The notes below the pieces were generated by a model that saw only the letters and a list, made by a program, of their open reading frames with translations, had not been told where the DNA came from and did no database searches. Both the position numbers and the translations under genes were made by a program. This document shows, piece after piece, positions 7,161 through 44,575 of a stretch of DNA of 60,684 nt (position 1 is its first letter; each line of letters begins with the position of its first letter). This DNA comes from an uncultured virus (IMG/VR IMGVR_UViG_3300009068_003844) (Duplodnaviria; Heunggongvirae; Uroviricota; Caudoviricetes). The DNA lies in IMG/VR virus record IMGVR_UViG_3300009068_003844. The stretch is one strand, 5' to 3'.

Positions 7161-7493
7161 ATGGAAATCCAGTATGGTCTGAATCTTTCTACTGGCTGTC
7201 GTGACGTTGATTTTAAGCCTGAATCTAACTTCTATAGCCCCAAGGCTAAGACCAGCGGCCGTAATTACAAGGTTAGTCTGAATCAGTTTATTCATACCAT
7301 CAATGCAGTTTTTGGTAACGGCGGCGACTATTCTGATGTTGCCAAGGAACTTGGCGTCACCAATAGTGCCGTCTATAGCAGGGTCAATAAGTTGAGGGAA
7401 ACAGTCCCAACGCTTCCTAAGATTGATAACCGTTCTAGCGATACTGCTGTTGAGGCGGCTGCTATTCTCGCTAAACTCGGCATCAACCAGTAA
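7161..7493 (+). CDS. small HTH protein, divergent member of the in-window paralog family
   Basis: 'GGDYSDVAKELGVTNSAVYSRVNKLR' and C-terminal 'AAAILAKLGI' match the 27319/32669/37832 proteins; motif at 7087. Confidence 0.8.
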   Translation: MEIQYGLNLSTGCRDVDFKPESNFYSPKAKTSGRNYKVSLNQFIHTINAVFGNGGDYSDVAKELGVTNSAVYSRVNKLRETVPTLPKIDNRSSDTAVEAAAILAKLGINQ

Positions 7494-7725
7494 TAATAGG
7501 GAGATATATCATGGAAGATAAGATTCCGTCTTATATGTTGGAAGATTATTATTCTAATCTCTTGTCTTATATCCGAATGGAATATATGACAGAATACACA
7601 GAGATGACAGAGCCTATGAAAAAATGCTTCTTGCATCTTTGGACTAATAATACTCCGATCCCTAATGCTGCGTTTTATTTTCATAATAGTTTTCGATCTG
7701 ATTATACACTATAAGGGGATATAAA

Positions 7726-8187
7726 ATGAATCGTGAAGAATGTCGTGTTGGTATGAATGTTATTTTCGGTAGTGGCAATGGCGAGAAAACTCGTGGAGTA
7801 GTAGTTAAAGTAAATCCAACTAAAGCCAAGGTTAGAACAACCGAAAGTCGTGGATATAAGCATGATGCAGGTACGATTTGGACTGTTCCTTATCCTCTGC
7901 TCCAAATGGTCGATGATAATGGGACGGTTGTTGAGAAGGAAATTAAATATAATCCATTCACCCATGTTGATAATTTGATTCTTGAGGCTGTTCTTTGTTG
8001 CTATGGAGAACTTAGTCCCGAAAATTTGAGTTGCGATGGGGAAGCCAATTATTATCAAATGATCAATAAAAAGAACAGTATCAGCAAGAAGTTGAAGGGC
8101 TTACTTATGGCCTATGGGATGGAGGTTAGTGAAAAGCAAATATATGATTGGCACGATAGCAAGCGTCAGTATGAAAGGAACAAGTGA
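7726..8187 (+). CDS. hypothetical protein with SH3-like N-terminus
   Basis: 'VGMNVIF..GVVVKVNPTKAKV' beta-barrel pattern. Confidence 0.55.
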   Translation: MNREECRVGMNVIFGSGNGEKTRGVVVKVNPTKAKVRTTESRGYKHDAGTIWTVPYPLLQMVDDNGTVVEKEIKYNPFTHVDNLILEAVLCCYGELSPENLSCDGEANYYQMINKKNSISKKLKGLLMAYGMEVSEKQIYDWHDSKRQYERNK

Positions 8188-8774
8188 TGTGCGATCAAAT
8201 TGATAGGGTATTTGCCTTTGAAGCATATGATATTGCAATTAAGAAGGGAAGGCATCCCGAACTTGAAAAACTGATAGCGATTTCACCAGAATCGAGTGTG
8301 TCTTATGCCATCCATCTTAAAGCCTCGCAAGGCGATAGTTTTAAAGAAGGAGAGGAAAGTATTTCCAAAGACCCTGTTTGCTCTTTGAACTATGCTAAAA
8401 AAGTATTAGAGGGCCGTTTTAAACTTGGCGAACCTGTAATTTCAAAAGATGCCAAAAGTTCTTATGAGTATGCTCTAGACATTATTGGTGGTCGATTTAA
8501 AATGGGAGAGCAAGCAATCTTAGATTCTGCTCGTAGAGGAAAAGATGTTAAACTGGCCGCTCTTTATGCCGCATCTATAATTGGGGGCAGGTGGGAAGAA
8601 GCAGAGCCCTTTATAATGCAGGTTCCAACACTCATTCTTCCTTATGCCAGTGAAGTTATTAAGGGCCGCTGGCATGAGGCAGAGAGTAAGTTGGTAGAAT
8701 ACGGTGAACTTTCAAGAAAATATGCCCAAGAAATGATTAAACTTCAAATCCCAGTTCTTTCTTTTGTTGAATAA
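8184..8774 (+). CDS. helical-repeat hypothetical protein
   Basis: Repeated YAxx(V/I)(L/I)xGR(F/W)xx(G/A)E units. Confidence 0.65.
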   Translation: MMCDQIDRVFAFEAYDIAIKKGRHPELEKLIAISPESSVSYAIHLKASQGDSFKEGEESISKDPVCSLNYAKKVLEGRFKLGEPVISKDAKSSYEYALDIIGGRFKMGEQAILDSARRGKDVKLAALYAASIIGGRWEEAEPFIMQVPTLILPYASEVIKGRWHEAESKLVEYGELSRKYAQEMIKLQIPVLSFVE

Positions 8775-8777
8775 AAA

Positions 8778-9365
8778 ATGAAACTTAAATTTGATCTTGA
8801 TTTGACGGATAATAAGCACCTTCGCAATCATTTGGTAAGGAATGTTCTTTGGTATTTTAAAGATAATATCGACAGAACCAAAGAACTTGATGATTATTTC
8901 TGCACCAGTCCAGCACTTGCCTATAAGTATCTAAAAGTGTTTCTTGAAAAAGGGGATAAAGCCTCTCCTGAGATTGAGAAGGTTCTGAGCAAAAACATTC
9001 ATTATCTTTTTTCTTATTTTCAGCACACCGGAAATCATAAAGTTCAAGACGAAAAGTTGCAGAAAAGACTTGATAAGAAGATCTACAATGATCCCCGCCT
9101 ATCATACTGCTATGCTCGTAGTGTTCTAAAGTCCAGAATACCAGAAGAACATGAAGGCGTTTTCCTCAAAAATTACGACTTTGCATATCGCTATGCTTGC
9201 GAGATAATCGGGGACAAATTCCCAGATAGTATTCACAGAATGCTTATCCTTTCAAGTTTTGAAGAATCTGGAGATAAATATGGTCTTAAAAAGTATATTG
9301 AATGTTGCGAGAAAAAAGAATTTAAATATGTTGGAAGAAATTGGTATGACAAGCATCCATTTTAA
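8778..9365 (+). CDS. helical-repeat hypothetical protein related to the upstream gene
   Basis: 'SYCYARSVLKSRIPE', 'YRYACEIIGDKFP'. Confidence 0.6.
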   Translation: MKLKFDLDLTDNKHLRNHLVRNVLWYFKDNIDRTKELDDYFCTSPALAYKYLKVFLEKGDKASPEIEKVLSKNIHYLFSYFQHTGNHKVQDEKLQKRLDKKIYNDPRLSYCYARSVLKSRIPEEHEGVFLKNYDFAYRYACEIIGDKFPDSIHRMLILSSFEESGDKYGLKKYIECCEKKEFKYVGRNWYDKHPF

Positions 9366-9368
9366 TTG

Positions 9369-10079: not shown

Positions 10080-10161
10080 CTAGTAAGGAATAAAAATCAT
10101 TTATAGCAAGCATATATAATATTGGATGGAATAATCCATCCAATTACAAGGAGGTTTATTT

Positions 10162-10374
10162 ATGAACGATTACATTGCTAAGCTCTATGTTACTCCAAAT
10201 GACGGATACACAACCGAAGGTTGCTTAGATTCCAGTGTTTATGGAGGCGTTAGTCTACAAAGAACACTCAACATGATTTCAACACAAGAAGAAATCGTTG
10301 TTGTTGTTAAGGACGGAGCCGGTTTTTCAACAAATGATGCACTAACAGTTACCCCAGGTTTTATCGCTGACTGA
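10162..10374 (+). CDS. hypothetical protein
   Basis: Strong AGGAGG RBS; terminator-like hairpin CACCCATGGGA/TCCTGTGGGTG follows. Confidence 0.65.
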   Translation: MNDYIAKLYVTPNDGYTTEGCLDSSVYGGVSLQRTLNMISTQEEIVVVVKDGAGFSTNDALTVTPGFIAD

Positions 10375-17174: not shown

Positions 17175-17462
17175 ATGGGAGATAATTACTCTTATATTAA
17201 AATGAAAAAAGGATTTACACTTGTAGAGGCTTTGGTTTGTTTGTTTATTGTTTTAACTCTTATTGGACTATTAGTCCCGGCAATTCAATCTATCAACAAT
17301 AAACGCATAGAGAATGGTGAGAAGTCTACGCCAGATGGTCGGATGTATAACTTTGTTACTGTGAAGCACGACAACCATCTTTTTATAAGAGATGGGCATG
17401 ATATTATTCATCATCCTGATTGTCCTTGTTTCACACTAACTGCCGAAAAGGGAGAAAAATAA
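17175..17462 (+). CDS. prepilin-type N-terminal cleavage/methylation domain protein
   Basis: 'KKGFTLVEALVCLFIVLTLIGLLVPAIQ'. Confidence 0.8.
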   Translation: MGDNYSYIKMKKGFTLVEALVCLFIVLTLIGLLVPAIQSINNKRIENGEKSTPDGRMYNFVTVKHDNHLFIRDGHDIIHHPDCPCFTLTAEKGEK

Positions 17463-18302: not shown

Positions 18303-18329
18303 AAAAAGAGTTTGGTTCATATATAATGT

Positions 18330-18545: not shown

Positions 18546-18595
18546 ATTACTAACCCTGCCCAAAAGGCAGGGTTTTTTTATACACTAGGAGGATA

Positions 18596-24383: not shown

Positions 24384-25112
24384 TTAAACAAGAAACTCTT
24401 TTATACTCTTGCTTAATCCCTGTTTTTCCCAGAGTTCCATATACTTTAATCTGCTATATTCATGTATTGGATCATATCCCCTGTTGTATGTGCTAGGGAG
24501 ACATGTTTCAATGAATAAAGGTACGTTTAAACAAACTCCACTAGTGAATAAAAGATTTTCAACTATGGGCATAAGATCTGTACCCTTGATATCAAACAAA
24601 AATTCATTGTGATTCACCATATAACTCTTTAATAGTTTTTCTGCATAGGTCCTCTTCATCATACAACTTGCACCCCAATCATAACTATCTCGGGTACGAA
24701 TGTTTAATTCTGGCTTATTTGCGTTAATACTATTAATTCTGATTAATTGAACAACTTCCCAATCTTTTGGTAAACTATAGAGGAATTCATTCCAAGTAAA
24801 ATTCCAATAATGACTAGTAATGAAACTGGTATCATCTTCTAGGAATATTCCGTATTCCTCACTTGTTTCATCTAGCCAATTCTTAATGCACCTTAAAAAC
24901 GTTATGTTTGTGCCATGATGATTGACACTTTCAATATAAGGGCCAGTTATTTTGACCAGTTCCTTGTATTCTTCAAATCTTTCTGTAGAGAATCTTTTAT
25001 AATTTGTGATATTATATTCTTTGAATTGATTCTCCATAAACAGAAAGCGATCCTTGCTTTCTTTTAAATTTATATAATTAATTCTTGAACTCTGGTTGAA
25101 CTTGAGACTCAT
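24384..25112 (-). CDS. glycosyltransferase family 25-like
   Basis: 'YINLKESKDR', 'IFLEDD', 'LPKDWEVVQL'. Confidence 0.75.
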   Translation of the reverse strand: MSLKFNQSSRINYINLKESKDRFLFMENQFKEYNITNYKRFSTERFEEYKELVKITGPYIESVNHHGTNITFLRCIKNWLDETSEEYGIFLEDDTSFITSHYWNFTWNEFLYSLPKDWEVVQLIRINSINANKPELNIRTRDSYDWGASCMMKRTYAEKLLKSYMVNHNEFLFDIKGTDLMPIVENLLFTSGVCLNVPLFIETCLPSTYNRGYDPIHEYSRLKYMELWEKQGLSKSIKEFLV

Positions 25113-25498
25113 GCTCCTAACTTAGTATATTTATTATTTTTCAAACGATATCCCGGAACACCACATAAACTGAATAGGAGTGCTTCTTCACCATTCTTTG
25201 TTGAAAAGTCATGGTGGAAATTGTTTACTTTCTCATTTGTGGCTTTAGTTACTATTTTCAATAGTTCACACTCACCAGATTCAATTAAGCTCTTTCGCAT
25301 CTCTTTTGCGATTATATTACCTCTTTCTGTGCTTAGGAGAAGTTTTTCACAATTTGTAAAATTATTCTGTGTGACCACTAGTATATTGTTATCAACTGAA
25401 TGGACTTTAATGTCTTTGGGTCCTCTGCCTAAGAACACAATGTAGAACCTTGAAAAATCCTTACACATCAGTTCTTCTGCTTCACCTTGAGTTTTCAT
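25109..25498 (-). CDS. DUF2294 family protein
   Basis: 'MKTQGEAE..LGRGPKDIKV..HHDFSTKNGEEALLFSL'. Confidence 0.75.
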   Translation of the reverse strand: MKTQGEAEELMCKDFSRFYIVFLGRGPKDIKVHSVDNNILVVTQNNFTNCEKLLLSTERGNIIAKEMRKSLIESGECELLKIVTKATNEKVNNFHHDFSTKNGEEALLFSLCGVPGYRLKNNKYTKLGA

Positions 25499-26190: not shown

Positions 26191-27318
26191 AGGTTTCTTC
26201 TTTTCTTTTTGGTACGGTCTCTTGTCATGGAAACTAGTAAAAACAGTATGCTTGCCAGTTTCGACCAGAAACTCGCTGAATACAAGACTCTCCTAGAGAA
26301 TCACGACTGGTATTACAGTTGGAGCGACGATAATAGGGTCTGGCGTAATGGTGAACAGAACCTCAAGCGTCTGAAAGAAATTGCAGAGTTTGGTGGTTTG
26401 GCTTACCAGATCCTGTTTAACGAGGAATACCAGAAGCATTTTAATGAGGGGTGTTTTAAGACTAGTTTTTCACACACTGGTAATCCCTCTTGTTCAACTC
26501 CTCCTTTTAAAGTCTAGAGTTTCCCTCTGGTACGCTTTTTGACCATGCAAAACATTAGTATCTCCTGCCGACTCTGCGGTGTGAAGAAACTTATTAGTGT
26601 TGATCCCTCCACATATGTGAAGTGGAGTATGGGACAAGGTTTTATTCAAGACTTGTTTCCCCATCTTAGTGCAGATGATCGGGAATTGATGATTAGTCAG
26701 ACTTGTGGAACCTGTTTCGACAACTTGTTTCCACCGGAGAATGATTACGATGAAGATTAATCCTCGTCCTGACTGGATTGAAACTGGCCTTAAAGTGCGT
26801 CCAGATTGTTATCATTATATTCGTAAAGTGAGTCTAGTCACCTCTACTGAAGGTAGCGGTTATTGGAGTGGTGTAGTTAAAGACTTTGTGAAGATAATCG
26901 AACTTGATTTGAACACTTACGAAGGACACGATGATTGTTTTGAATTAAGGGCGTATTTTTCCAAGAAAACTTGGAATGTTGAAAAGCATGGTTTGATTTA
27001 TACCGATAAACTTTGGCTGACTACCTTTAAGAAAAGTCTTATTGATTTAGGTTTCAGTAAAAAGGGACTCAACGCAGTAGACTATAGTGAACAGGGTATG
27101 CAGGGCGAGGATTATGTGAGTATGGATGTATCAGCACCAGGTGAACACGATCAAATTGAAGTTTTCATTAAAGATTACGAAAAAGTTCTTTATAGTGTCA
27201 AAGACAGGTTTTTAGGTAGTTTAAGAAAGAAGTAAGTTTCCTTTTGGTACGGTTGGTGGTTGTTCCCGATTCAACGTGAGTCTGGAAGAAAGGGTTGTTA
27301 AAGAGGGAGTTTAATACT

Positions 27319-27573
27319 ATGGGTCGTGCTAAGGGTCAGGCTGGTGTGTCGCTGGAGCGTTTCCTCACCTGTGTCATCGAGACGCAGCGGGCTGGCGGTA
27401 GTGTTGAAGATGTTGCGAACGAACTGGGCATTGTGGCCGGTTCGGTTTCGGTGCGTCTTTCGCAGTTGCGGAAGAAGCATGGTCTGAATATCCCCCGCTT
27501 TGAGGGTGGTGGTCGGACTAGCAACACCGCTGAACGGGCAGCGGCTATCCTTGCCTCGCTTGGGGTTGAGTGA
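27319..27573 (+). CDS. small HTH DNA-binding protein (paralog family)
   Basis: 'GGSVEDVANELGIVAGSVSVRLSQLRKKHG'; ATG at 27319 after GGGAG; GC-rich. Confidence 0.85.
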   Translation: MGRAKGQAGVSLERFLTCVIETQRAGGSVEDVANELGIVAGSVSVRLSQLRKKHGLNIPRFEGGGRTSNTAERAAAILASLGVE

Positions 27574-27586
27574 AGGATTTAATCTT

Positions 27587-27618
27587 CTCCCCTCCCCCTT
27601 TAATGTGGGGGAGGGGAG
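27587..27618 (+). terminator. GC-rich hairpin after the HTH gene
   Basis: CTCCCCTCCCCC/GGGGGAGGGGAG. Confidence 0.6.
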
Positions 27619-27674
27619 GGGTTGACGAAAAGTTTGTTTCTGGTACGGTAGTGTTTTGTTGTTGATTAAGTCGG

Positions 27675-27747
27675 GCGACCCTAGCTCAATTGGCAGAGCA
27701 CGAAACTTTTAATTTTGGGGTTCTGGGTTCGATTCCCAGGGGTCGCA
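27675..27747 (+). tRNA. tRNA-Lys(UUU)
   Basis: Acceptor GCGACCC/GGGTCGC, D stem GCTC/GAGC, loop CTTTTAA, T arm CTGGG-TTCGATT-CCCAG. Confidence 0.92.
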
Positions 27748-28320
27748 CTCTTTGTTTTTTCTCCAATATCCTCTTGGTGGTTTGGTTAGATTATATTTCT
27801 TTACCCATTTACCAACAGCTTTATCAGATACTCCATATTGTTTAGCAATTTGAATGGTTGGCATTTCCCATACAAGTTTTTTTAGTAATTCTTTTGTGGG
27901 CCATTCAACCTTCCTTGGTCTTTGTTTTTTTATTTTTTCTTTTCTAGGTTTTTGATTCTTTTTGTCAAACTCCCAATGACAATTGGGACAAAGAATTAAA
28001 ATATTAGACTGGTCATTCACCTCAGATATTAAAGTTTCTTCTGGGAATGAGTGGATTGGTTTAATGTGACAAACTTCAACGTGTTTATCGTATCCGCAAA
28101 ATTGACACTTTATATTCCTATATTGAACCCTGGCTCTGTTTCTGACAACATTAAATTTTGCACTTTGTCCATGCAGTGCTGATACCATCGCATCTTTGAT
28201 TGTTAGATATTTTATTTGACCATTATTGCAGCATTTGATACAATGTTTAGACAAGATTGTTTTGTGTTTACCACAGGAACATAAATCATATTGATTTGGG
28301 TATTTTGAAGCAGGATCCAT
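27709..28320 (-). CDS. free-standing HNH endonuclease with C-terminal HTH
   Basis: 'CQFCG..EVCHIKP..NILILCPNCH'; HTH 'IAKQYGVSDKAVGKW'; 3' end overlaps tRNA-Lys in antisense. Confidence 0.85.
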   Translation of the reverse strand: MDPASKYPNQYDLCSCGKHKTILSKHCIKCCNNGQIKYLTIKDAMVSALHGQSAKFNVVRNRARVQYRNIKCQFCGYDKHVEVCHIKPIHSFPEETLISEVNDQSNILILCPNCHWEFDKKNQKPRKEKIKKQRPRKVEWPTKELLKKLVWEMPTIQIAKQYGVSDKAVGKWVKKYNLTKPPRGYWRKNKECDPWESNPEPQN

Positions 28321-29498
28321 ATCCTAAAATAGTAAAAATTTTCTTTCCCTCTGGTACGGTGAGTGAGCATGGAAACAATCCAAAAAGAAAAACTCCTCAC
28401 CAGTTTTGTTGAAGTTAAGAAAATTTATCTTCATGCTCGTCGATGGTTTCAACGCTCTTATGGTAATACCTACCATACCGTTGAAATTTGGGTAAATGAC
28501 CATTTGGTTCATAAGATTCCTTTCACTTATGGGTATGGGGATCAATGGTCATACAATGCCGGTAAGTGGCTTGTTGATAATGGTTATGGACGTTTTAGTG
28601 GATACTATCCCATCAGCAGATATTGCCGAGAAAGTGGAATAGAGTATAATCATACTGTTGAGGATGTTAAAAGAAAGAGGGATCTTTAATGAGTGATCAA
28701 CATTCTAATTGGTGGCACAAATTTGTTAGTGGTATGCCTCCACTTAACAAGATTAGCAAGGACTTTGAAACTTCGACACTTACATTTAGTGAAAAAGTCG
28801 CAGATTTACGATCTAGAATCAAAGAGTTCAAAGAACAAGTTGAATCAGAGACTAAGGCTTTTTATAAGAAGAAGAAAAAAATTCTTCGTCGTGACCCTGC
28901 CCGCCCCTGGTAAAAAGGAAATTTAATTATGACTACCTTGACTAAAATTGAAATGCCAAACGTAGAAGTTCTTCGTAAGACTGGTTATAAGGTTCGTGTT
29001 TATCACGGACGGGTTTATCTCCGTTGTGTTACTCCGGATCATGCTAACTCTCCAGAAATTATTCACGAATATATGAGCAAGCGTGAATATGAACAATTTA
29101 ACAACTTAGTTCAAAGTGTGAACTGGGAACTCAGTTGCAAGGGCGGCTTTACTATTGTGGAGATTACTACTCCTGATGGTCGTGATCTGAGGGGTAAGTT
29201 TAATGTTCCAGCAGGCGGAATGTTTAATCGTAAACTGGGTGTGAAGATTGCTACTAATCGGGCTCTTAAGAGTGGTGTTTAAATGTATTGACCAATATCC
29301 TCTATTAGATTATAATAGAGGTATTATGGAAAAATATACTTGGATTGTTTGGAAGAACAACCGAATAGCAGGGTATGTATCTGCTTATAGCGAATGGGAC
29401 GCAAATAGATTCGCCAGAATGAAGTTTGGTTGTGAAATCTGGGTAGAGAGAACGGTAGAATCTGGTACGGTGTGAGGGTGTCACACGGAGAACTCTAG

Positions 29499-29729
29499 AT
29501 GCTAGACGATATTGACTTTAGTGATTTCATTCTTGGTGGTGAAACTGAAGCCACTCAGAAGAAGAATAAGAGAATCCCCCTTGACGTTTTCCTCAAGAGT
29601 ATTGTAGAAGCCGTTAAGAATGGCGGAAACAGTATTAGTGTTGCAAATGAATTGGGGATCTCTCCTCAAGCAGTAAGGCAGCGTTGTCATAAACTCCGGG
29701 CTAAGGGAGCCCCTGTGCCACAATGGTGA
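29499..29729 (+). CDS. small HTH protein (paralog family)
   Basis: 'PLDVFLKSIVEAVKNGGNSISVANELGISPQAVRQRCHKLR'; motif at 29464. Confidence 0.8.
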   Translation: MLDDIDFSDFILGGETEATQKKNKRIPLDVFLKSIVEAVKNGGNSISVANELGISPQAVRQRCHKLRAKGAPVPQW

Positions 29730-30009
29730 ATCTTATGGATAAGGAACAGGCCATACTCTTTTGCAAGATCGCCAGTAAACTTTCTTATTCAAAGAGTTTA
29801 ACTCAAGATAATATTCTCAAGAATAGTTTAGACGATATTCTCGAGATGATTAGTTTGTATTGTGATACTGCTCCTGATAATCTACTTCGTAATAATATCG
29901 ACGTTGTTATGGAGCATAAGAATTGGCAGATACAAAAGGGTTTGGTACAATAAAAAACCCCAAGAGGTTAGTCTTGGGGTTAACACCGAATGTGTTTTTA
30001 GTTAAATTA

Positions 30010-30465
30010 TTAGTTACTTAGTCTTAAGAAACCATTTCTTACTACAACGTATTGCATGGTGTGTGGATCGCCGTCACCTGAGTGAATAACGAAACCAGCT
30101 AAACCATTGTTCTTCCAGTTATCATAGTTATCGAACTCATCGTCAATACCATACTTGTTATAACGAGTTCCATTGACCTTAACGTATTTTTCAACGTGAG
30201 GGCCGTGGTTTGGTCTTTGACCATTCTCGCCTTGTAAAGCACCTTCTTCGTCGCATTGTGTTAGTATAACACTATACATATCTGGATTTAAAGGTAATAC
30301 TTCTTCTAAATCAACTGTGATCCACCAATTGTTAGTTTGTCCGTCTGATCCTACAGTTCCTGTTCTGGCAATGCCAGCAGCGACAATGTGAGGGCCAGCG
30401 GCTGTTAAACAAACTTGGTTAGGGGCCATTCCTAAACCTGTGCCTTGTGATGTTGTTGCACTCAT
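30010..30465 (-). CDS. hypothetical protein
   Basis: AAGGAG RBS, 151 aa; terminator-like hairpin near 29955-29982. Confidence 0.65.
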   Translation of the reverse strand: MSATTSQGTGLGMAPNQVCLTAAGPHIVAAGIARTGTVGSDGQTNNWWITVDLEEVLPLNPDMYSVILTQCDEEGALQGENGQRPNHGPHVEKYVKVNGTRYNKYGIDDEFDNYDNWKNNGLAGFVIHSGDGDPHTMQYVVVRNGFLRLSN

Positions 30466-30534
30466 AATAAAACTCCTTTTAAAAAAACATGATTAACGTC
30501 ATTGTTAATCTATAGGTATATACTATTCTAAACT

Positions 30535-31002
30535 TTATTTATATCTATTTTTCCTTCCTTTGCCTCTGTTTCTTCCTTTAAAAGTTGCAGTTATTGAATC
30601 GCAATTATTACATATAATTCTCATGTTAGATAAATCATGATTTTCAGCATTACCATCTATATGATCACAAACTAAGGGAATTCTGACTCCTAGCCATTCC
30701 GATAATCCGCACATTATACACTTATGTCCATGTGTTTGTATTAAGTATTTTTTTATTAATTTACGAGCATGATATTCACAAAACGTTTTATATTGTCCAC
30801 TTTCTATTTTTTCTTTTAAACTGGCGGAGGTTATTTCATCAAATTTTTTGCCTTTGTTCCAAGGTATGCAACCTTTTTGAACACCTGCTTTTGGTGATTT
30901 TATTCTTTTGACTCTTTTGGGATTATTTTGACAACATAATTCATGAGATGCAAGAGAGCCTTTATTGTTTATAGTTCTATTGCAATATTTACAGCTATTC
31001 AT
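30535..31002 (-). CDS. free-standing HNH endonuclease
   Basis: 'CIMCG..LVCDHIDGNAENHDLSNMRIICNNCDS'; AAGGAG RBS before MNSCK. Confidence 0.85.
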   Translation of the reverse strand: MNSCKYCNRTINNKGSLASHELCCQNNPKRVKRIKSPKAGVQKGCIPWNKGKKFDEITSASLKEKIESGQYKTFCEYHARKLIKKYLIQTHGHKCIMCGLSEWLGVRIPLVCDHIDGNAENHDLSNMRIICNNCDSITATFKGRNRGKGRKNRYK

Positions 31003-32668
31003 ATATACTCCTTTTGATTTTTGGTTATATGTATTATATATACCAATCAACGCATTAAATCATTCTCTCAACCACATAGTTTCTGGTACGGTTGGAGTTT
31101 CCCGACCTCCCTCTTGAGGAAGAAGATGCGTAAGATTGAACAAGAGATGATTGATAGCATCTTGAACAAGAAGAATCATTCTTGTGGCAACACTAGGGTT
31201 GAAGTTGCCGATGATGTGATTCTTGTCTTTTTGTTTAATAACCTGATTGCTAAAATTACCAACAAGACTGTAGGGATTAATAATCAGGGATACACTACAT
31301 ATGTTACCAAGAGCCGGCTTAATTGTATCCTTCGTAAATTTTGTGAAGGTAGAAATATTTACCAGAAAGATTTCAACTGGTATATTAGTGGCGAGCCCAT
31401 ATTAAACAATAGTTCAGAATACCCCAGTAATGTTTGGAACTACTTTCCAAATGTGGTACTGTTGAAAAGTTTTGAATGAAACAATACATTGTAATCAATA
31501 CAAATAAACCATATGTTGATGGTGAGTATCCTTCCGGTGGTTTTGAAATATATTTACTGAGTGCCTTCCCCGGGTCTGAAAAAGAGTTGTATATTGACTC
31601 TAGTCCTGATTGGGAAAGTGTTTCAAATTTTGTGAAGATGGTTAGTAGAAATTCTACTATTCAGGTTGAATACAGGTCTGCTAAATAATAGTAATGTTTT
31701 ACGTTCACATTTACTATGAACAAGGGCAAATCAAATACGACCCATATGAAAATCCAGAAAAATTACATAATTTTTTGGATAATCTTCCTTATGATGAAAA
31801 TTTAATTGTCATGGAAACAGTTAAGGAAGAAACGGCCCGATAGTTTTTGGTACGGTAGAGTAGTAACGAAAGGATAGAAAAAATGGAACATTATCGTTAT
31901 TATTGCACTGTTAAACTCAACAACATTGAGGACAGGCTCAATATTTATAACTGCGATCCCGGTGATGCCACTATGTGGTACGGCGGAATCTGTGAAGTTA
32001 TGGAAATCTTTGGAGGTACGGTTAGTAACCTTATGGGTGAACCTGTAACTCAGGATCAAATCCTAGAGGAATTTAGGAAGGAAGAAAGTGATGCTAAACT
32101 TAGTTTCTGCCTAGCGACTGGCATGACCCGCCGTGATGCTAGTTCTGTGACGGTTAGTTTCAAACCTTCTGTGAATGAAATTGTTTCTTCTGCGAACCCT
32201 GTAGACGAAAATAATAACAATAGTCCACTAAGGTTTGCAGAATAATATGAGTATGCTACACCCTAAAGTAAAACTTTTCTTATCAAAAGGTTTCGGAAGA
32301 AACTTTATAATCGGTAATCATGTCCGTGGATTTAGGGTTACGGTTAGAGATGGCGATTATGGCGAAGTAACTTTTAGTACAGGCAATGATGTTGAAACTT
32401 TAATGCTTGATTGCATTAAACAGTTTGACAATAGTGTGAAGATTAAAGAAGCCGAAAAGGTTAAGAGACTAGCGAGAAGGAAGAAGGAAATACAGAAGGA
32501 ACTTGAAGAAGTTTCAACTGAGTTAACGAATATAACTCTGAACTCATTCCAGAAATAAAAAGAAATAAACAGAGAAACTTGTCTTTTGGTACGGTTGATG
32601 GACGTTGCGACGGTGAGCCACTTCGGCAAACGGCAACAAAGGGTTGAATAACGCAGGAGATTACTACT

Positions 32669-32923
32669 ATGGGTCGTCAAGTTGGACAGAAGGGTGTCGC
32701 TCTGGAGAAGTTCCTGACCACGGTGGTCGAGACGCAGCGGGCCGGCGGTTCGGTGCAGGACGTTGCCGATGCTCTGGGCATCACGGCCGGTTCGGTGTCG
32801 GTGCGTCTCTCGCAACTGCGGAAGAAGCACGGTGTGAACGTCCCCCGGTTCGAGGGGTCGGGCCGCACCAGCAACACCGCAGAGCGGGCGGCTGAGATTC
32901 TCGCCAGCCTTGGGGTTGGTTGA
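32669..32923 (+). CDS. small HTH DNA-binding protein (paralog family)
   Basis: Near-identical to the 27319 and 37832 proteins; very GC-rich; motif at 32588. Confidence 0.85.
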   Translation: MGRQVGQKGVALEKFLTTVVETQRAGGSVQDVADALGITAGSVSVRLSQLRKKHGVNVPRFEGSGRTSNTAERAAEILASLGVG

Positions 32924-32955
32924 AGTTAAAGGCTGATATAATAATCGGCCATACG

Positions 32956-32990
32956 AACCCCCTCCCGTAAAACGGAGGGGGTTTATTTTT
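32956..32990 (+). terminator. intrinsic terminator
   Basis: AACCCCCTCC/GGAGGGGGTT plus T-rich tail. Confidence 0.75.
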
Positions 32991-33034
32991 TATTTGTTAT
33001 AGACTATATTGTTTTTGGTACGGTAAACAACCAT

Positions 33035-33106
33035 GCCCCGTTCGTATAGAAGTTAGTATACTGGGCTTTCATCTCAGGGACGCCGGAGCGTTACCGGCAC
33101 GGGGTA
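33035..33106 (+). tRNA. tRNA-Glu(UUC) with non-canonical T loop
   Basis: Acceptor GCCCCGT/ACGGGGT, anticodon stem CTGGG/CTCAG, loop CTTTCAT, T arm GCCGG-AGCGTTA-CCGGC. Confidence 0.85.
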
Positions 33107-33644
33107 CTTTTAAACAACATGAAACGATCAAATAACTATTCTGTGAAAGAAGAAGGCCGCTGGTTTGTGGTTTATAAGGATCACAAGCCAGTTACCGATA
33201 AAGGTGATATTCACCAAAAGCCATTTGTAGTTAAATGGCAGAATAAAGAATCAGCCGAGAAGTATATAAAAGAATTAAACAAAAACTTTGACGGTGAAAC
33301 AATCGCCAGTCTGTATTCGGTACGGTAGAAAAACATGAACACATGGAAAAGCAGTCATAACTTCCCTCCAGAAAAGGATCAGGAAGTTTATTACTTCGGC
33401 CCTAATATTGGGATCGGTATTGGCAAATACCATTATGAAGAACGTGAAATAAAGGGGACTAAACTTTGTCCTCATATCTTTGTGAATAATAAGTTCGGAG
33501 TAGTAGACGCTTGTGATGCTCCATTCTGGATGCCTTATGATAATGAAAAGGCTAAAGGTTGGTGTCCAATCATTCCAAAAGAATATACTAAGGGCATATA
33601 CGAGAACGATTGATTTTGGTACGGTGTGGAGTCAACGAGATACA

Positions 33645-33779
33645 AACTGTGTGTCTGCCGACAGTAGAGAGATAGCCCAGCAAACAGCGTCTGCATCTAA
33701 TGGGTGTATGGGGTTGCCGAACTAGGCTATGGTGAGGCTTATGCTGCTCTCTATCCGGGTTGGATTCCCGGCACAGATT
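33645..33779 (+). ncRNA. tRNA-like RNA of about 135 nt with a large structured insert replacing the anticodon arm
   Basis: CTGTG/CACAG acceptor-like stem, T arm CCGGG-TTGGATT-CCCGG, TAGAGAG/CTCTCTA and ATAGCC/GGCTAT helices. Confidence 0.55.
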
Positions 33780-33863
33780 CAATATAAATGCGTCAGGGGT
33801 CGGATAGAAACCTAAATAAGGTTGAATAGTGCGTGATACCGGACACTATTTGTGAAACTATCG

Positions 33864-33942
33864 TGGAGCGTAACTCAACTGGATAGAGTTCCACTTGCTT
33901 TAAAAGCAAGAGGAGTTATGGGTTCAAATCCCATCGTTCCAT
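33864..33942 (+). tRNA. atypical tRNA with UAA anticodon (Leu-reading), extended anticodon stem, no long variable arm
   Basis: Acceptor TGGAGCG/CGTTCCA, D stem ACTC/GAGT, TCC-A-CTTGC[TTTAAAA]GCAAG-A-GGA, T arm ATGGG-TTCAAAT-CCCAT. Confidence 0.7.
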
Positions 33943-34937
33943 AAGTCGATCCATTCTCAGCCGGTATATCAATACAAAAGGAAAATAATGAGAATAACCA
34001 AGAAACAAATAGCAGAGGCTCTTGGTATTGACTGGCCTGTATCGTCAAAGGATACTGCTATTGCACTACGAAATATCGAGACAATCCTTGATAATGTCGC
34101 TGAAAATCTTGAAAATGATTTTGAATCTGCGGCTTTGGGTGACGCTTCTAATCTAATCCAAATGATCAGGGAATGTCTAAAGGATAGTTGATTTTGGTAC
34201 GGTTGTGTGAAAGACAATAAAGGAAGATAACATGAAAACTGTATTTGTTGTTTTTGACCCAGTTCATCCATACACTAACTTCAAGGTTTATCAAAACATT
34301 GAAAATGCTGCGAATGATCTGAGGAACAATGGTTTTACGATTGACTTCTTGCATGAGGAGTTAGACCTCTTAGCCTCTGCCATATTCCTTGCACCCAACT
34401 GGAATCGGGGGCAGGGCTTAGTATACAAAAACAAAAATACCCCTGAACAAAGATTTTTGTATTCTCGCTTGGTAGAAGATTGTGAAGAAAACAAAAACTA
34501 CCTCGCAGATAAAAATGAAGATTTGGCTTGTTAAAGATAGTTGATTTTGGTACGGTTGTGGGTTGTTCCGAAACAAACATTCTTCAAAGGATTAGAAAAT
34601 GTTTTACCTTCAGATTGCCAGTTTAGTTGTTGGATTACTTGTTGCTTGTCTCCAGTGTGGTAAGGAAGCCGCCCCTGTTGTTCATACGATTGTGGAGGCA
34701 AGGAAGTATCATCGTGTTGAACCCCAATACAATGTCTATAGGGGCTATGATAATAACTACCGGTATTGGAGTGATTCTACCGGAACATATTGGTGCAGGG
34801 TCAATCAGCAAGGCTCTATGGAGATTGCTGTGGTAAATCAGTCCTCACAATCTCAGCAGCAGATTATGATTTGTCAGACGCCCAACAACACGATTCGTTG
34901 ATTCTGGTACGGTTCCAACTTACTCAAGGAGAATAAA

Positions 34938-35111
34938 ATGGAAAACTGGACTGTTATCGACGATACTAAACTCCGTCACGTTTGGCGTTGTGCAGATTGT
35001 GATTGTGTTACTCATGTTACTCCGTGGTGGTATGAAGATGCCGGAACCCCGGTATGCGAAAAGTGCGGTGAAGATATGAAGTATCTTAGCACAGAGTTCA
35101 ATAACATCTAG
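34938..35111 (+). CDS. small Zn-ribbon-like protein (below the ORF-track cutoff)
   Basis: MENWTVIDD..CADC..CEKC; AAGGAG RBS; TAG stop overlaps the next motif. Confidence 0.65.
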   Translation: MENWTVIDDTKLRHVWRCADCDCVTHVTPWWYEDAGTPVCEKCGEDMKYLSTEFNNI

Positions 35112-36685
35112 TACGGTTCCACCTTACCCAAGGAGCAAAAGATGAACACTGAACTGGAACAAATCGCACGGGCTATCATCGGCATTAGCGTTGCCGATCT
35201 TACTAACGCCGAAAGAATCATCTATAAGATTCTGGAGAAGCGTAACATCGTTTGTGAACGGGGTCATTATGTTGAACTTACTAATGATCCAGAACTCAAT
35301 GCCCACTATGATGAAATGGAAATATATAGTCAGAGTCAAGAGTGGCCCGAAGATTATCCTTTTTAGTACGGTGAATAAATATGAAAATCATTATTGAAGT
35401 GAACATGGACAACGCTAGTTTTAATGATAACCCCAACGAACTGGGTGAGATTCTAACTCAAATCCCCTCTAACATTAAAGCAGGGGATGATGGGGTTCTC
35501 AAAGACTCTAACGGCAATAAGGTGGGATTCTGGGACGCATTTGAAAGTTTCTAGTACAGGTATCCTATAAGCGGTGGAAGTCAAAAACGCCACTGGACGT
35601 TAGACCAGTATGGATACTTCTAAGGAAAAGAAAATGTATCGTGCTTGTTTTATCTTTTTTGTGTTCATTCTACCGATTCTGAATATTGTATTTTGTCTTG
35701 GATTTCTCGCAGGAAAGTTTTCACAATGAAAAACTGGATTTGCTACAATCTGTTTGGTGAACATCCAGATGATGTTGACACGTTTGGTATGGTTAGTGGT
35801 CTAGGCATTTTGGCTTTCTTGATTTTCTGGACTAGTTATCTTTTTATCTATATTCCTCTTTATTTCTGTCGCTAAAGGATTGAACTAATGGATACCATTG
35901 ATACTCTCAAGATGCTCAGGATTTTTGTGGATACTGCTCCCCTGAATAGTCAGGGTATGGTTGAGCCTGATACTCTCAACTTCATTAGCATGAGGCTGGG
36001 TAGTATTGTTGAAACTCTGGAGCGAGAAAAAACTCTCTCTGATGAACTCCGTCAGATTTTGGTACGGTAAAGATTTGTCCTAACATCACTAAAGAGTAAT
36101 AAAGATGACAACAACAGACATTTTCATCATCGGTATGTATCTGACTAGTCTTGTTGGTATGGTTGTGATCGTAGCGAGTTTCTTTTGGGCGATTGATACT
36201 TTGGTCAATGCACTTTACAAGCCAACCTCTAAGATTAAAACCATGATTGCTGAGGATGGTACTGAATGGCAGGTGGGATATATTGACGAGTTCCCCGGCT
36301 ATAGAGAACTTTTCTAGTACGATCAATCATCAAGGAGAAACACAATGAACGACTTCTACGATGGATTCTATGAAGATTGGTGGGGGACTAAGAACGTGAA
36401 GGGTCACGACGCCCACAAGGGATACAATAAACACGATCTTGCCTCAAGGAAAAACTATCGGGACAAGGTATTAGAATACCTTAGACTGGAGTTTTGTGAT
36501 ATTGGGGATTGGTGGCATCTTCCCGTTAAGGGCGTTAATATCAATAGGGTATTGTTAATCAACCTTATTAACGACTGCCAGAATGATAATATGAAGATCA
36601 ACAACGCCAGCGGTGTTGTCTATGAATGGCTGAAGGGCCGGAATCTGATTTAGTACGGTGAATAGGCAACAGAGGAGAAATAACA

Positions 36686-37006
36686 ATGCAAGAACAAGTC
36701 GAACTTTGGCTCGCTGCTTTGACTGAGAAGTCTAACACCACTGGGGCTGAGACTAAATACATTCTTGAACCGGGGCGAAAGTATACTAGAGTGGTTCGTC
36801 AAGAGCGTTGGCTGGATAGTAACGGGGAACCGCTGTGGGGTGCTAACAAAAGTGTCCATGCCTTTATAGACGAAAATGGGGATATTTATAAGGCAGCAAG
36901 TTGGAAGGCTCCGGCCAAAAATGGAGCAAGATTTAATGTTGTGAACGATATTCAAAGGTTGGTCGAAGTTTGTGATCCCTATGGTAGTTATCTCTACAAG
37001 AGGTAA
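36686..37006 (+). CDS. conserved phage hypothetical protein
   Basis: 'GRKYTRVV..SVHAFID..GDIYKAASWKAPAK' resembles a family common in T4-like myophages. Confidence 0.7.
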   Translation: MQEQVELWLAALTEKSNTTGAETKYILEPGRKYTRVVRQERWLDSNGEPLWGANKSVHAFIDENGDIYKAASWKAPAKNGARFNVVNDIQRLVEVCDPYGSYLYKR

Positions 37007-37831
37007 GATCAGGTAAGATCAGGTACAGTTATCAACCAGAGGAGAATAACAATGCTTTGGCAAAAGAAAAAGAATCGGTATAATACAAAGCCGTATTACG
37101 AAGCAAAAGAGGGAGATATTGTGTATCAACTCCGATATGTTCCCTTCAAGGGTTGGCAAGCATCAAGGCAGGAAGCCAATGTTTGGACGATCCCGGGAAT
37201 AAAGAAGGACATGGCGGAGGCTATGGGCTGGTGTGAGAGTGACTTTTCGGTACGGTAGACTATCGTTCCAATAAAAAAGGAGACGATTGATGCCAGATGA
37301 ACTTGCAAAACCTATTGATGCAATGCGGGAATACGCACTTCATGTTGGGGCCGAACATCCAGAACGTCAATGGATTTTAACTGATTATGATGTTTGGATG
37401 CCAAACCCGTTTTTCAACGGTGTTCCCGGCCCTCACCCCGAAGATTAGTTTTTAGTACGGAGCAGAGATATGGAAAACAGTTTTTACGGTTTCTGGAGAG
37501 AAAAAATGCCAGACGATACAAAAACCAGTAGTGGTCTTGACCGATACACTCTTGGTTTCCTTGAAGATTATTACGCAAGGGAGACTGTGAAGCCGGTTTC
37601 AAGCCTTATCGAAGCCGCTACACAGTTTGAAAAGGAGCCAGAGTTTAAGAACTATCTGGCTATGAGGGATCTTTTTAGGGAGATTGAAGCAAATATGACA
37701 CGGAGAGACGGTTTCCGTTGTCATAATCGGTAAAGGATAAGATTCGGTACGGTTAGGGTTTGTTCCGACAGCAAGCCAATGAGGCAAGCGGGAACCAAAG
37801 GGTTGGTAACTATAAGCAGGAGATGATTACT

Positions 37832-38092
37832 ATGGGTCGCCAAGTTGGTCAGAAGGGTGTTGATCTTGAGACGTTTCTCACCACGGTTATCGAAGTGCAG
37901 CGGGCTGGTGGCAGCGTCGAGGACGTTGCAAGCAAGTTGGGCATCGTTCCGGGTTCGGTGTCGGTGCGTCTGAGCCAGTTGCGGAAGAAGCACGGGCTGA
38001 ATATCCCGAAGTTTGAGGGTGGTGGTCGCACCAGCAATACCAAGGAGCGTGCGACGGAGATTCTCGCCAGCCTTGGCGTCGAGATGCTCTGA
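37832..38092 (+). CDS. small HTH DNA-binding protein (paralog family)
   Basis: MGRQVGQKGVDLETFL..; motif at 37746; hairpin CTCACCCCCCGGCC/GGCCGGGGGGTGAG at 38104-38139 follows. Confidence 0.85.
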   Translation: MGRQVGQKGVDLETFLTTVIEVQRAGGSVEDVASKLGIVPGSVSVRLSQLRKKHGLNIPKFEGGGRTSNTKERATEILASLGVEML

Positions 38093-41000
38093 AGTTAGTC
38101 ACACTCACCCCCCGGCCAAACAATAGGCCGGGGGGTGAGGCCCACGGGGTTTCCCATGGGTACGGTTTCTGGTTCCTGGTCGAAGCCGGGAATCTGACTG
38201 GTTGTGAATACCTGAAGAGTCTTCAAATGATGTGCTTCCTTGGATTGTGTAGCGGTATTATTTCTATTATCATTGATAATAACAACCCACGCTAAACAAT
38301 CTTCGACCGTCCCGTTTGGGGATTCACTAGGTTCAATCCTAGCGGTCGATTTTGGTACGGTAAAGACTTGTGAGCCTTACTTTTACTTTTAATAACTAGG
38401 ATTAAAAATGAGAAGCACAATCGAGGATCATGAGTTTGCTGTTGAACAGTGGAAGAACGACAATGCTTGCTGGCTTGATGGGGAGCCCGCTAAAATCGTG
38501 GGCTTCCTTGAGAAGTTTCCTACTGTGGCTCAGTTGAACGGCCCAAAGAGTTTTCAGTGGAGTTGGGCTGCCGTTAACAGGATTATGAGCAAAGACCGAC
38601 AGTTCAAATCATAAAGATTTGGTACGGTAAAACTTCAAAGGAGAATCCAAATGTGGCTTGCAATGGTCATTCGTGACAGTGTTCCTGAGAGTGTTACCAG
38701 TTTCGACAACTACTATGATGCAGTGGGTTGTGCGGACGATTGGATTATTAAGTTTGACCCGTCAGTAACTCATTCAACCCTCCCCCGATATTCTAGGGGT
38801 GAGAGTTACCATAAGGATGGTTTGAGGGTAGATATTCTAGAAATCAACTAGAATCCGGTACGGTCGGGAGTTGTTACCCGAAACGAAAGGAAATCATGGC
38901 GTTAGAAACCACTATTGATGATCTGGTTCAGCGGTTCGGAGAAGAGCCGTTCCCATGCACCTTCATCCATCGGTTCGACCCCGAAAGGGTGGCGGCATTC
39001 GACCGTGAACGGGCGGTACACTGGCTCATCGGCAAGGTCAATGGACCGAAGATCATGTTATCACTCCTGCCGGATCGTCTTGTATTTGAGGAGTTGATTG
39101 ATTCATTGGATTCCTACGGATGGAATCTGCTGGTCGAGGGCGGCATGAACTATCGAATCAAGAGGCATGACTAGAATCCGGTACGGGTTAGTGTTGTTCC
39201 CTCCACTTCTCAGGAGTTAGAGATGAAAGTTACTAAGACTCGTCGCCTGAAGTTGCTCAAGGACATGGAAGCCTCAAAGGAGATTCACAATCGGGGTCAC
39301 TACACTGTCAACGAGCGGGTTCTGGTCAATGCGATTGTCAACATCATCCAGAATCAGCGTGAAGTTGAAGTTCCGGTCGAGTTCGATCCGGTAATCAACC
39401 CGCTCAACGATGAAGTGCTGAGTGTCATCACGGGTTGATGATCCCTACGGGGATAGTATCTAGTACGGGTTATAGTTGTAACCAACACCACTAAGGAATC
39501 AGACAATGCCGTGGCAAATCGTTGATGAACCCAAGCCAATCAAGTTCTATCCTTTTGAGACAGAAAACGGCACAGAGTTTCGCCGTGTTGGTGGCTTGAT
39601 GGTAAAGGGAACCATCCGACACTCCAAGGCGAGCGAGGATCAAGTCTGGCGGGTTGTTTATACTAATCGGGCCGGAAGAGGCACTTTTAGTATTACGGCT
39701 CCAGATCGCACCGTAGAGCGTCAGAATCACAAACTGGACTTTGTGAAAGTAAAGGCTAAGGCTACGGTCTACAGAGAGGGTAATCGTAAGGGCGGAATGA
39801 CCCCAACCGCATTTCAGCGGGAACTAGCAGAAATGTGTGGGGGCAACTTTGCCGGTAGTTTCTATGGTCAAATGGTCAATGCCGTGAAAGTGGCACTAGG
39901 GGCAGAATAAAGACTCTCCCCCGATCATATTGGTGATTCCACGCTAAGCGTAGAGTTTTCATTATGATCGGGGGATTTTTCTTTTTAGTTTTTGGTACGT
40001 AGATTGGGTGTGAACCATTAACCACGGAGCCAATACCATGCTTACTGAATGGGAAGTTTACTGGCGAGTCGGCGTTGTCGGGTATGTATGGGCTGCTAAC
40101 AAGAGAGAAGCACTGTATCTTGCAGTTAACCTATACGGTGAACTGGCTAGTGTTAAAAGCAACAACCCTAGTTAAATCTAGGGTTAAACTTTATGTTTTT
40201 GGTACGGTAAAAAACCAAAAGGAGAAAAGTGATGACCCCAGAGCAAAAAAACATCATCGACCGGGCTCTTAGCACTCTTATTTGGGAGACTAAGAAGAAT
40301 ATTCTGGATACCCAAAATAGTGGGGAGTATGACTCCGCAGTAAAGAACTTCCTCATTGAACAGAGGAAGTTGCTGGAGGAAGCAACCCTGCTCCGTAAGG
40401 AACTCAGGGAAGATAATCTTTGGAATCCAGTACGGTAAACTCTTGTCTTAACCCTAGCCCAAAGGAAAAAACAATGTTCAAGAACATCAAGTGGTTCGAT
40501 GGTTTGTCTTGGGTCAGTGGTTATATTCTGGAGATCATGTTCAAGGACGGTAAAAAGGGTTATATCAAGAATACTGACCGCAAAAAGATTAGTCATCTTT
40601 TTGAAACTTTGTGGAACGACCATAACATCATCGGTTTGACCGTCTACAATATTGATGAAAAGGTTGAGGACGCTAAGTATCGTTATCTTGGTTGAAATGA
40701 ATCAGGTACGGTAAACTCTTGTTCCATCAACAAAGAGGACTAAAAATGACTACCGTTATCACTGGCCTGAATGTTGAAAAGTATCGTCTGCTCAGTCTCA
40801 AGAGTGCATTGAAGTTGGAGACTAAGGGACTCAAGCACTCAAGGTTCAACGTCAGCCAGATTGTGAAAAGAATCCTTCAGGAAAAGGGAATCAAGCCTAA
40901 GAATAATAAGATTGAACTGCTTGTCCAGTTTGAATCCTACTTGGAGGGGGTCATCTGAGGCTTTCGGTACGGTAAACTCTTGCCGATAACTCTGGGAGTT

Positions 41001-41367
41001 TCATCATGAAGAAGTATGAAGTAACCTGTTGTGACACGGGTAAAACAATAGTCTTGACTCATAAAGAGGCGGTCGAAAAGTTCGGCAAGGTTGAGTTCAA
41101 AGAGATTCTGAAAGGATACCTTCCCCATCTGGTCGCTGTTGAAGTATTCAGTACGGTGGATGGTTGTGAACCCAACACTCAAAGGAGAGTCTAATGGATG
41201 ACTTTGATATGATGCAAGAAACAGTCCTCTGGCCTTGGATTGACGATCCAAGTTATGACAATGAAGATGCAGAGGATGAATGTAACTATGATCCAACGGA
41301 AGAAGAAAACTAGTACGGTAGATTATCGTTGATTGAACCATAACCATAACCATAAGGAACCAAAACC

Positions 41368-41613
41368 ATGAAGCGTCAGACTGTTAGCGTTGAAACGTTC
41401 GTCAATGTCATCATGCGGCATCTCAACAATGGTGGGAACCAAACCAGTGTTGCTAAGGAGTTGGGAATCACTCCGGCAGCGGTTTGCCTCCGTCTCAAGT
41501 ATCTCCGTCAGAACGGTGCTTGTGTTCCCAAGACTAAGAAAGAGTTGAAGTCTCGCCGGAACAAGGCAAGTATCGTGGCCGCTGCCAACAAGGAAATGAA
41601 GGGTTGGAAGTGA
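41368..41613 (+). CDS. small HTH protein (paralog family)
   Basis: 'VSVETFVNVIMRHLNNGGNQTSVAKELGITPAAVCLRLKYLR'; motif at 41312; GC-rich hairpin follows. Confidence 0.8.
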   Translation: MKRQTVSVETFVNVIMRHLNNGGNQTSVAKELGITPAAVCLRLKYLRQNGACVPKTKKELKSRRNKASIVAAANKEMKGWK

Positions 41614-44563: not shown

Positions 44564-44575
44564 TAGATTTAATGG

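Follow-up and report, generated by a model that had tools for sequence, protein, structure and literature searches.

Phage proteins that are made early and in abundance and that bind DNA broadly or retune the host RNA polymerase, such as T5 D5, SPO1 TF1, phi29 p6, the SPO1 host-takeover module, and T4 MotA/AsiA, are encoded by single-copy genes; small genes that have strong promoters and terminators are clustered in such phages. Repeated early units are known from the T4-type phages RB49/phi1, T4/PST, and KVP40/nt-1 as promoter-early stem-loop (PeSL) cassettes (PMC2839356, PMC4122927), and the available excerpts on the cluster A mycobacteriophages L5 and TipsytheTRex describe a monomeric helix-turn-helix (HTH) repressor that binds more than 20 oriented asymmetric sites and whose isolated HTH lacks specific binding (PMC9283540). 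Here, we describe a 60,684-nucleotide stretch of DNA (the window) from the uncultured virus IMGVR_UViG_3300009068_003844 (Caudoviricetes), in which a family of small HTH paralogs is embedded in a polarized array of the motif GGTACGG. The motif is very probably the core of an early promoter, and the family is best explained, at a probability of about 45%, as dosage-amplified early DNA-binding proteins of low specificity.

The window is part of a virus record of 251,265 bases (G000; completeness estimate, 50%), which is a T4-like huge phage, as it encodes a Gp23 capsid, a T4-type portal, an S77 protease, and a terminase. All six HTH open reading frames (ORFs) named in the original prediction are genuine (Table 1) and can be aligned over the shared pattern it had proposed; F, GG, VA, LG, V, R, LR, and P do not vary in this alignment. 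A family size of six holds for the window only, as a profile of the six identified two further members elsewhere in G000 (E values, 8e−22 and 1e−11), for a total of eight. AlphaFold predicted helices at residues 12 to 24, 29 to 36, 40 to 52, and 70 to 80 in the protein at 27319 (pLDDT, 77). The family is modeled as a basic three-helix HTH (pI, 8.7 to 10.8) with an N-terminal Gly-Arg arm, found in 27 of 41 aligned rows, and a separate C-terminal amphipathic helix that is conserved. Helix 3 consists mostly of small residues (P in 33, A in 27, A in 34, V in 40, S in 30, and R in 40 of the 41 rows) and carries an invariant Arg.

No named family for these proteins was identified in Pfam, PHROGs (0 of 4 proteins matched), NCBIfam, or PADLOC; Pfam returned sub-threshold HTH matches only for the six window proteins, and PADLOC returned weak CARF-HTH rows (best E value, 3e−4). 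Foldseek found nothing at an E value of ≤0.001 in the PDB or a viral fold library, and the VIA structure comparison gave generic HTH matches of a common arrangement (best Z, 6.1). Using tblastn, no family match was found among 50,697 GenBank phage records, and 401 Planctomycetota genomes contained only three weak matches (30 to 34 bits). In the Atlas, 29 of 30 matches were unnamed clusters, and the three shown are 92 to 100% viral. Of 150 listed rows, 25 short single-domain proteins were retained and the remainder, mostly long tandem repeats, set aside as generic; a further search yielded 48 short homologs. Longer or fused forms of the family were absent at an E value of ≤1e−8 among 7,999 scored proteins, which is weak evidence. 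Three long unannotated proteins (P0001, P0002, and P0004) with 7 to 12 tandem HTH repeats of ∼50 amino acids match the family profile. Neither the family nor its repeated amplification was found in literature searches, and the excerpts seen of PMC7162821, bioRxiv 2023.05.30.542503, and PMC12619734 yielded nothing on the HTH family, the motif, or a planctomycete host.

The HTH core resembles those of LysR, Lrp/AsnC, DtxR/IdeR, and the GcrA DNA-binding domain (best PDB profile E values, 4e−4 to 0.1 over ∼30 residues; VIA Z, 5 to 6), but unlike these cellular regulators the family has no effector, wing, or sigma-binding domain. LysR and Lrp were rejected as assignments, since the proteins are too short for an effector domain and the LysR-type models of NCBIfam match no more than 5 of 66 members. 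GcrA combines an N-terminal HTH with a C-terminal σ70-interacting domain; it was also rejected, as PF07750 matches the 7161 protein only (15.1 bits against a cutoff of 26.9) and the proteins stop one helix past the HTH. No sequence match or significant fold match links the family to T5 D5, SPO1 TF1, phi29 p6, the SPO1 host-takeover module, or MotA/AsiA, none of which are repeatedly amplified paralogs.

Three of the genes (27319, 32669, and 37832, here the trio) had been described as near-identical, GC-rich, and evenly spaced. Near-identity was not borne out, with protein identities of 81 to 83% and DNA identities of 72 to 75%. Pairs differ by 29 to 33 synonymous changes over 68 to 70 same-residue codons, and every copy has one positional ortholog in each of two related records, G001 and G002; the copies are old and have been maintained under selection. 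The GC richness was confirmed (Table 1), with third-position values (GC3) of 0.57, 0.75, and 0.69, or 2.8 to 4.8 standard deviations above the mean of 359 ORFs (GC, 0.355 ± 0.055; GC3, 0.317 ± 0.09), a set in which greedy filtering had sacrificed some paralogs to longer antisense frames. Neighboring early genes likewise reach GC3 values of 0.56 to 0.63. Of the proposed build of motif, leader hairpin, ribosome-binding site (RBS), gene, and hairpin, the strong 3′ hairpins stood, the 70 nt downstream of each trio gene folding at −31.6 to −48.4 kcal/mol, whereas the trio leaders fold only modestly (−11 to −13.5 kcal/mol) and 29499 and 41368 have no leader hairpin; the 7161 and 29499 genes head operons and lack a strong terminator. 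All six leaders of the trio genes in G000 and G002 retain the sequence AGGGTTG. The spacing of 5.2 to 5.3 kb becomes 4.6 and 4.9 kb in G001 and 5.3 and 4.3 kb in G002; a regular 5.2-kb interval was therefore rejected as a design feature.

GGTACGG occurs 37 times in the window, always on the plus strand (expected, 1.70 ± 1.31). Across G000, 69 copies of RGTACGG share one strand and 6 are on the opposite strand, and 68 of the former lie within one 105-kb arm that ends at 42.8 kb. The claim that each HTH gene is headed by the motif was upheld in the form RGTACGGT, found 35 to 86 nt upstream of all six, although 41368 has AGTACGG rather than GGTACGG. The motif is not peculiar to HTH genes, as 41 sites between 26.2 and 42.8 kb precede most small genes and tRNAs. 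In the alignment of G000 sites, positions −26 to −24 read GTT and are followed by a run of pyrimidines; GGTACGGT occupies −16 to −9, and eight bases on comes a pyrimidine-purine (YR) step, for a consensus of (GTTTC)YYTYYGGTACGGT-N6-YY-R. The ninth base after the motif is a purine in 61 of 68 sites, the preceding base is a pyrimidine in 57, and the first ATG falls exactly on the start-like purine in 8, the commonest distance, with no RBS there by eye. When six site sets were pooled, YR stood at the predicted step in 140 of 170 sites (next best offset, 67). Another relative, G003, carries 41 RGTACGC sites on one strand and none on the other, with the same geometry. No conserved −35 element was found in G000 (information content, ≤0.14 bit over −50 to −27), and TTGACA lies 16 nt upstream at a few G003 sites only. 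Two promoter subclasses are apparent, with upstream GTTTC in the sparse part of the arm (and in G003) and without it in the dense part from 29 to 43 kb.

This geometry is that of a core promoter, for which reason the motif is very probably a core promoter with some leaderless genes and not primarily an operator array, the latter being disfavored by the constant distance to YR and ATG. A σ54 promoter was also rejected, since, compared with the σ54 consensus, only the −24 box is resembled and the leaderless ATGs are too near.

The early region is organized in cassettes. G000 and G001 differ by units whose ends lie at the motif, as in PeSLs: 13 of the 28 block ends are no more than 20 nt from a motif, compared with a background of 9.6% (P = 6e−7). 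As far as the excerpts of the PeSL papers extend (PMC2839356, PMC4122927), both systems combine a T4-like phage, a repeated early promoter beside a polyG/polyC stem-loop terminator, and hyperplastic regions of small ORFans, and in both, gene gain and loss between close relatives falls at the cassette. PeSL promoters match the Escherichia coli σ70 consensus with −35 and −10 boxes, whereas those of G000 do not; here, eight bases separate the core GGTACG(G/C/A)T from the start purine, and this core is unlike the promoters of planctomycete tRNA genes. A multiplied HTH family, present in G000, is not mentioned in those excerpts. The cassette architecture is therefore of a known kind, and the promoter sequence is new. 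The likeness to the stoperators of cluster A phages lies in an HTH protein and more than 20 asymmetric sites oriented along transcription (68 on the same strand in G000). According to the excerpts (PMC9283540), the stoperator repressor is a single two-domain protein of 183 amino acids from a temperate phage, and its sites stop elongation; G000 and its relatives instead have 6 to 13 single-HTH paralogs of 76 to 143 amino acids (76 to 110 in G000) and sites spaced as promoters.

Of 52 metagenome loci, retrieved with the pattern of one subfamily, 16 held true family members, and all 16 carried the polarized motif (RGTACRNT), which lay upstream of all 41 family genes with enough flank. In the 36 other loci (342 kb), the motif occurred 26 times in sense and 31 times in antisense. 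Co-occurrence, which the original prediction had proposed as a check, was thus complete, but the 16 loci come to approximately four lineages (GGTACGGT, GGTACGCT/GAT, GGTACGCT with GTTGGT, and GGTACACT), three of the loci belonging to that of G000, and it would be expected in any case given shared ancestry and HTH genes that are cargo of the promoter. G003 has six paralogs, four with a motif within 260 nt, and locus L071, which overlaps the end of G003 (98% identity over 822 nt), adds seven, so that this lineage has up to 6 + 7 copies. In a FastTree phylogeny, the G000 trio, a MAGRI-type quartet of L071, and the L077-type copies formed clades of their own (support, 0.998, 0.919, and 0.984, respectively); one subfamily was thus amplified independently in three lineages. 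Orthologous paralogs at L013:12712–12978 (minus strand) and at 59816 of G003 (L126 2816) lack the motif and by eye have a TTG-N-TAnnnT-like sequence upstream, which makes them candidates for expression by unmodified host polymerase.

The 595-kb genome LR756511.1, which holds the closest GenBank capsid to that of G000 (75% identity), bears on the idea that motif and family form one system. Matches to G000 ORFs (n = 410) numbered 68 in LR756511.1 and 99 in G003. In LR756511.1, 128 of 133 AGCTGTAC sites lie in convergent polarized arms, where they head promoter-gene-terminator units with GC rising to 0.5 to 0.6, and ATG follows GTAC by 9 to 11 nt in 21 of the 128 sites (mostly 10 to 11; the G000 spacing is 11). 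No HTH family member was found in this genome (best E value, 0.76). Arrays of such design therefore do not require the family, but it could still read GGTACG, since LR756511.1 has a different motif; motif and HTH family may or may not form one system. In this unannotated record, the arms (1 to 110 kb; L278 to L283) have a polarized early promoter of their own, AAGCTGTAC, with the 128 sites converging on 19 kb; at 5.7 kb lies a GC-rich gene for a 129-amino-acid protein with AT-hook-like RGRP-type repeats.

In the mechanism we favor, the motif would form the core of an early promoter with an invariant part at approximately −16 to −9 and a start at the purine nine bases past its last T. This promoter would drive many short promoter-gene-terminator cassettes, exchanged by recombination at the promoter, and would most likely be read by the RNA polymerase of the host, carrying either a host or a phage sigma factor. 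The HTH genes would be cargo of these cassettes, one subfamily having been multiplied separately in several lineages and given the strongest expression signals. Its protein may be required in bulk within minutes of infection and, binding DNA with low specificity, could coat host or phage DNA and so silence host transcription or shield phage DNA. That near-equivalent copies have been amplified again and again and carry maximal expression signals argues for a stoichiometric role. Broad DNA binding is favored by the small-residue helix 3, which is TPAAVSLR-like throughout the GGTACGCT, GGTACGAT, and GGTACACT lineages and constant over three motif variants, together with the invariant Arg, the Gly-Arg arm, and the basic pI. 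The DNA-coating option raised in the original prediction fits at least as well as its motif-plus-HTH system. Several observations weigh against low-specificity binding. The trio proteins have a net charge of just +3 to +4, which is mildly basic, and several relatives have acidic tails, both weak properties for a DNA coat. The trio helix, AGSVSV, deviates in the single lineage with G at motif position −10. A GGTAC core is found in every family-bearing lineage and a different motif in the family-less relative, which fits a specific reader too, and LysR-type helices with comparable small residues do read sequence. As for the promoter, a test for 5′-terminal stems gave no enrichment at the predicted +1 (4 of 170 sites).

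A family that reads the promoter class sequence-specifically would account for the complete co-occurrence, for the lack of both family and GGTACG motif in LR756511.1, for the two promoter subclasses, for the motif-less paralog and its G003 ortholog, for the conserved AGGGTTG leader element, and for the one coincident change of helix 3 and motif. The amplified subfamily might then shut off strong early promoters, where many sites on replicating genomes need many repressors, or the paralogs might each activate one promoter subclass in the manner of MotA, with the motif-less paralog starting the cascade from a host-type promoter. This is the main rival, but we consider it less likely, as the co-occurrence comes from few lineages and one subfamily's query, most small genes there bear the motif, the eight G000 paralogs show six different helix-3 sequences, helix 3 stays the same whether the motif variant is C, A, or ACT, and the LR756511.1 array of equal geometry works without the family. 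The cluster A repressor offers a precedent for an HTH protein on oriented sites, but according to the excerpts its isolated HTH is not specific, and the family proteins have a single HTH (PMC9283540). Still less likely is the full circuit, a planctomycete huge-phage clade with a private early promoter class under 6 to 13 HTH paralogs, in which the paralog with a host-type promoter activates, diverged ones select subclasses, and the amplified subfamily shuts off by titration.

Dosage amplification would suit any stoichiometric inhibitor, and the HTH fold could instead bind protein, as a sigma or RNA polymerase appropriator or as a decoy for a host defense or nucleoid protein. The low net charge of the trio, the acidic tails, the conserved amphipathic last helix, and a slight resemblance to sigma region 4 and to the DNA-binding domain of GcrA (below threshold in Pfam; VIA Z, 5.4; root mean square deviation, 2.6; 48 aligned) point in this direction. 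The invariant helix-3 Arg, the next Leu-Arg, and the Gly-Arg N-terminal arm are DNA-facing features, however, and no known inhibitor was matched in PHROGs or the viral fold library, so that a protein target appears improbable. Least probable of all is that recombination between repeated promoter cassettes generated the copies as a neutral by-product: cassette boundaries are indeed recombination points, but the HTH family alone was multiplied, other pairs being isolated among 159 early-arm ORFs of G000 and 355 early ORFs of LR756511.1, and its copies, which are old and intact, show codon adaptation and conserved positions.

The host of G000 is probably a member of the Planctomycetota. G003 carries a planctomycete-type σ70-family gene (288 amino acids; L137 796–1662), whose three taxon-named homologs are from Isosphaeraceae, Gemmataceae, and Planctomycetes and which has close homologs on other contigs (35 to 100% identity). 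An alignment of 11 homologs of this sigma factor retrieved 80 loci, of which 73 had planctomycete titles, 3 were unnamed, and 4 were other, a partly circular result since the first row of the alignment is an Isosphaeraceae protein. The gene was detected in two of five records, G003 and, as a two-piece copy, LR756511.1 (190.5 to 191.1 kb). In G000, two prepilin N-methyl genes (window 17175–17462; L010 17206–18054), a CsrA gene (L010 14213–14392), and an MpsC/DUF2294 gene (window 25109–25498, minus strand) presumably fit a planctomycete host. This assignment is weakened by the sigma gene lying in G003 and not in G000 and by the Atlas clusters nearest the G000 MpsC protein, which are from Bacillota; the prepilin-like protein gave no match as a query in the host scan. 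The anatomy of the trio (promoter, RBS, terminator, and top GC3) and the probable planctomycete host support, by inference, the proposal of highly expressed early proteins tuned to a GC-richer host; one Gemmataceae genome has a GC content of 60%.

As to the polymerase, the motif was not found in the 195 nt upstream of the G003 sigma gene, and this factor is therefore no more than a candidate reader of the promoter. PF00562 (RNA polymerase beta) was found in none of five records, three of which are fragments, and Sigma70_r2 in none of three. In the regions upstream of planctomycete tRNA genes (n = 96, many of them orthologs), TAnnnT occurred 84 times in sense and 49 in antisense, GGTAnnnT 12 and 1 times, and GTACG 3 and 6 times. 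By eye, these host promoters are canonical (TTG, 17 bases, and a TATA-like box) without GTACG. The full phage pattern was present in 1 of 301 host genomes, and no peak of a leaderless signature was found in planctomycete DNA among 1,329, 3,165, and 148 candidate starts. Host σ70 is a possible reader, because the core retains TAnnnT despite the long spacing.

The analysis provides a map of an early promoter class and of how the early region is built from cassettes. A protein that these phages have multiplied repeatedly is a likely key factor in host takeover. No paper on planctomycete phages was found with the phrases searched. Should the family prove to read the motif, the two would make up a new multi-paralog transcription circuit; should it coat DNA, it would be a candidate tool for countering the condensed nucleoid of planctomycetes or its defenses. 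A further possible use of the promoter is as a strong expression part in planctomycetes, and tests of a protein of 84 residues and a motif of 8 bp would cost little.

Table 1. HTH paralogs and associated expression signals in the window
Feature	Coordinates	Strand	Remarks
Putative promoter core RGTACGGT with upstream GTTTCC element	7087..7094	+	Predicted +1 at 7103
HTH paralog, 110 aa, N-terminal extension	7161..7493	+	Operon head without strong terminator; G003 ortholog
Putative promoter core	27246..27253	+	Predicted +1 at 27262
AAAGGGTTG leader element common to trio	27289..27297, also 32638, 37797	+	AGGGTTG core in three G002 orthologs
Trio HTH paralog A, 84 aa	27319..27573	+	GC 0.588
G/C-rich terminator-like hairpin	27579..27625	+	Followed by next promoter and tRNA-Lys
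Putative promoter core	29464..29471	+	Predicted +1 at 29480
HTH paralog, 76 aa, acidic N terminus, no C-terminal helix	29499..29729	+	Operon head
Putative promoter core	32588..32595	+	Predicted +1 at 32604
Trio HTH paralog B, 84 aa	32669..32923	+	GC 0.651; GC3 0.75, top among compared ORFs
Terminator-like hairpin and T tract	32955..32984	+	Followed by next promoter and tRNA-Glu
Putative promoter core	37746..37753	+	Predicted +1 at 37762
Trio HTH paralog C, 86 aa	37832..38092	+	GC 0.582
Terminator-like hairpin, 14-bp G/C	38104..38139	+	
Putative promoter core, AGTACGGT variant	41312..41319	+	Predicted +1 at 41328
HTH paralog, 81 aa, net charge +13 (very basic)	41368..41613	+	Subfamily conserved, present in L071/L079
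Terminator-like hairpin, 15-bp	41617..41656	+	
Dense putative promoter array (41 RGTACGG sites, small genes, three tRNAs, terminators)	26211..42774	+	Gene gain/loss versus G001 at motif

The three tRNAs of the dense promoter region are tRNA-Lys (27675–27748), tRNA-Glu (33035–33107), and tRNA-Leu (33863–33943), and the cassette with tRNA-Glu is found again in L071 and L073. The array terminates in four closely spaced motifs (42634–42800). After the last of these comes a short element that closes with GCCATTACGCCC and a run of T. This element is conserved in the lineage of G003 and L071 (L071 14150–14230; L079 2460–2530) and is possibly a small RNA, an origin, or a genome-end signal. In G003, approximately 45 copies of GAGTGAACC lie on one strand of a repeat region at ∼115 to 117 kb (L129).

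Downstream in the window (44492–45508), a tRNA-Thr gene and a group I intron match (44600–44792; RF00028) were identified, together with a minus-strand gene for an HNH endonuclease. Elsewhere in G000, the portal gene contains an intein (L001 11459–13966), and two genes for nucleotidyltransferases of the PolyA-polymerase/CCA type are present (L007 6707–7909 and L008 18307–19617). Within the structural region, an actin-like protein (Pfam Volactin; E value, 6e−63) is encoded on the minus strand (L005 5236–6288) and shares 60% identity with the LR756511.1 copy.

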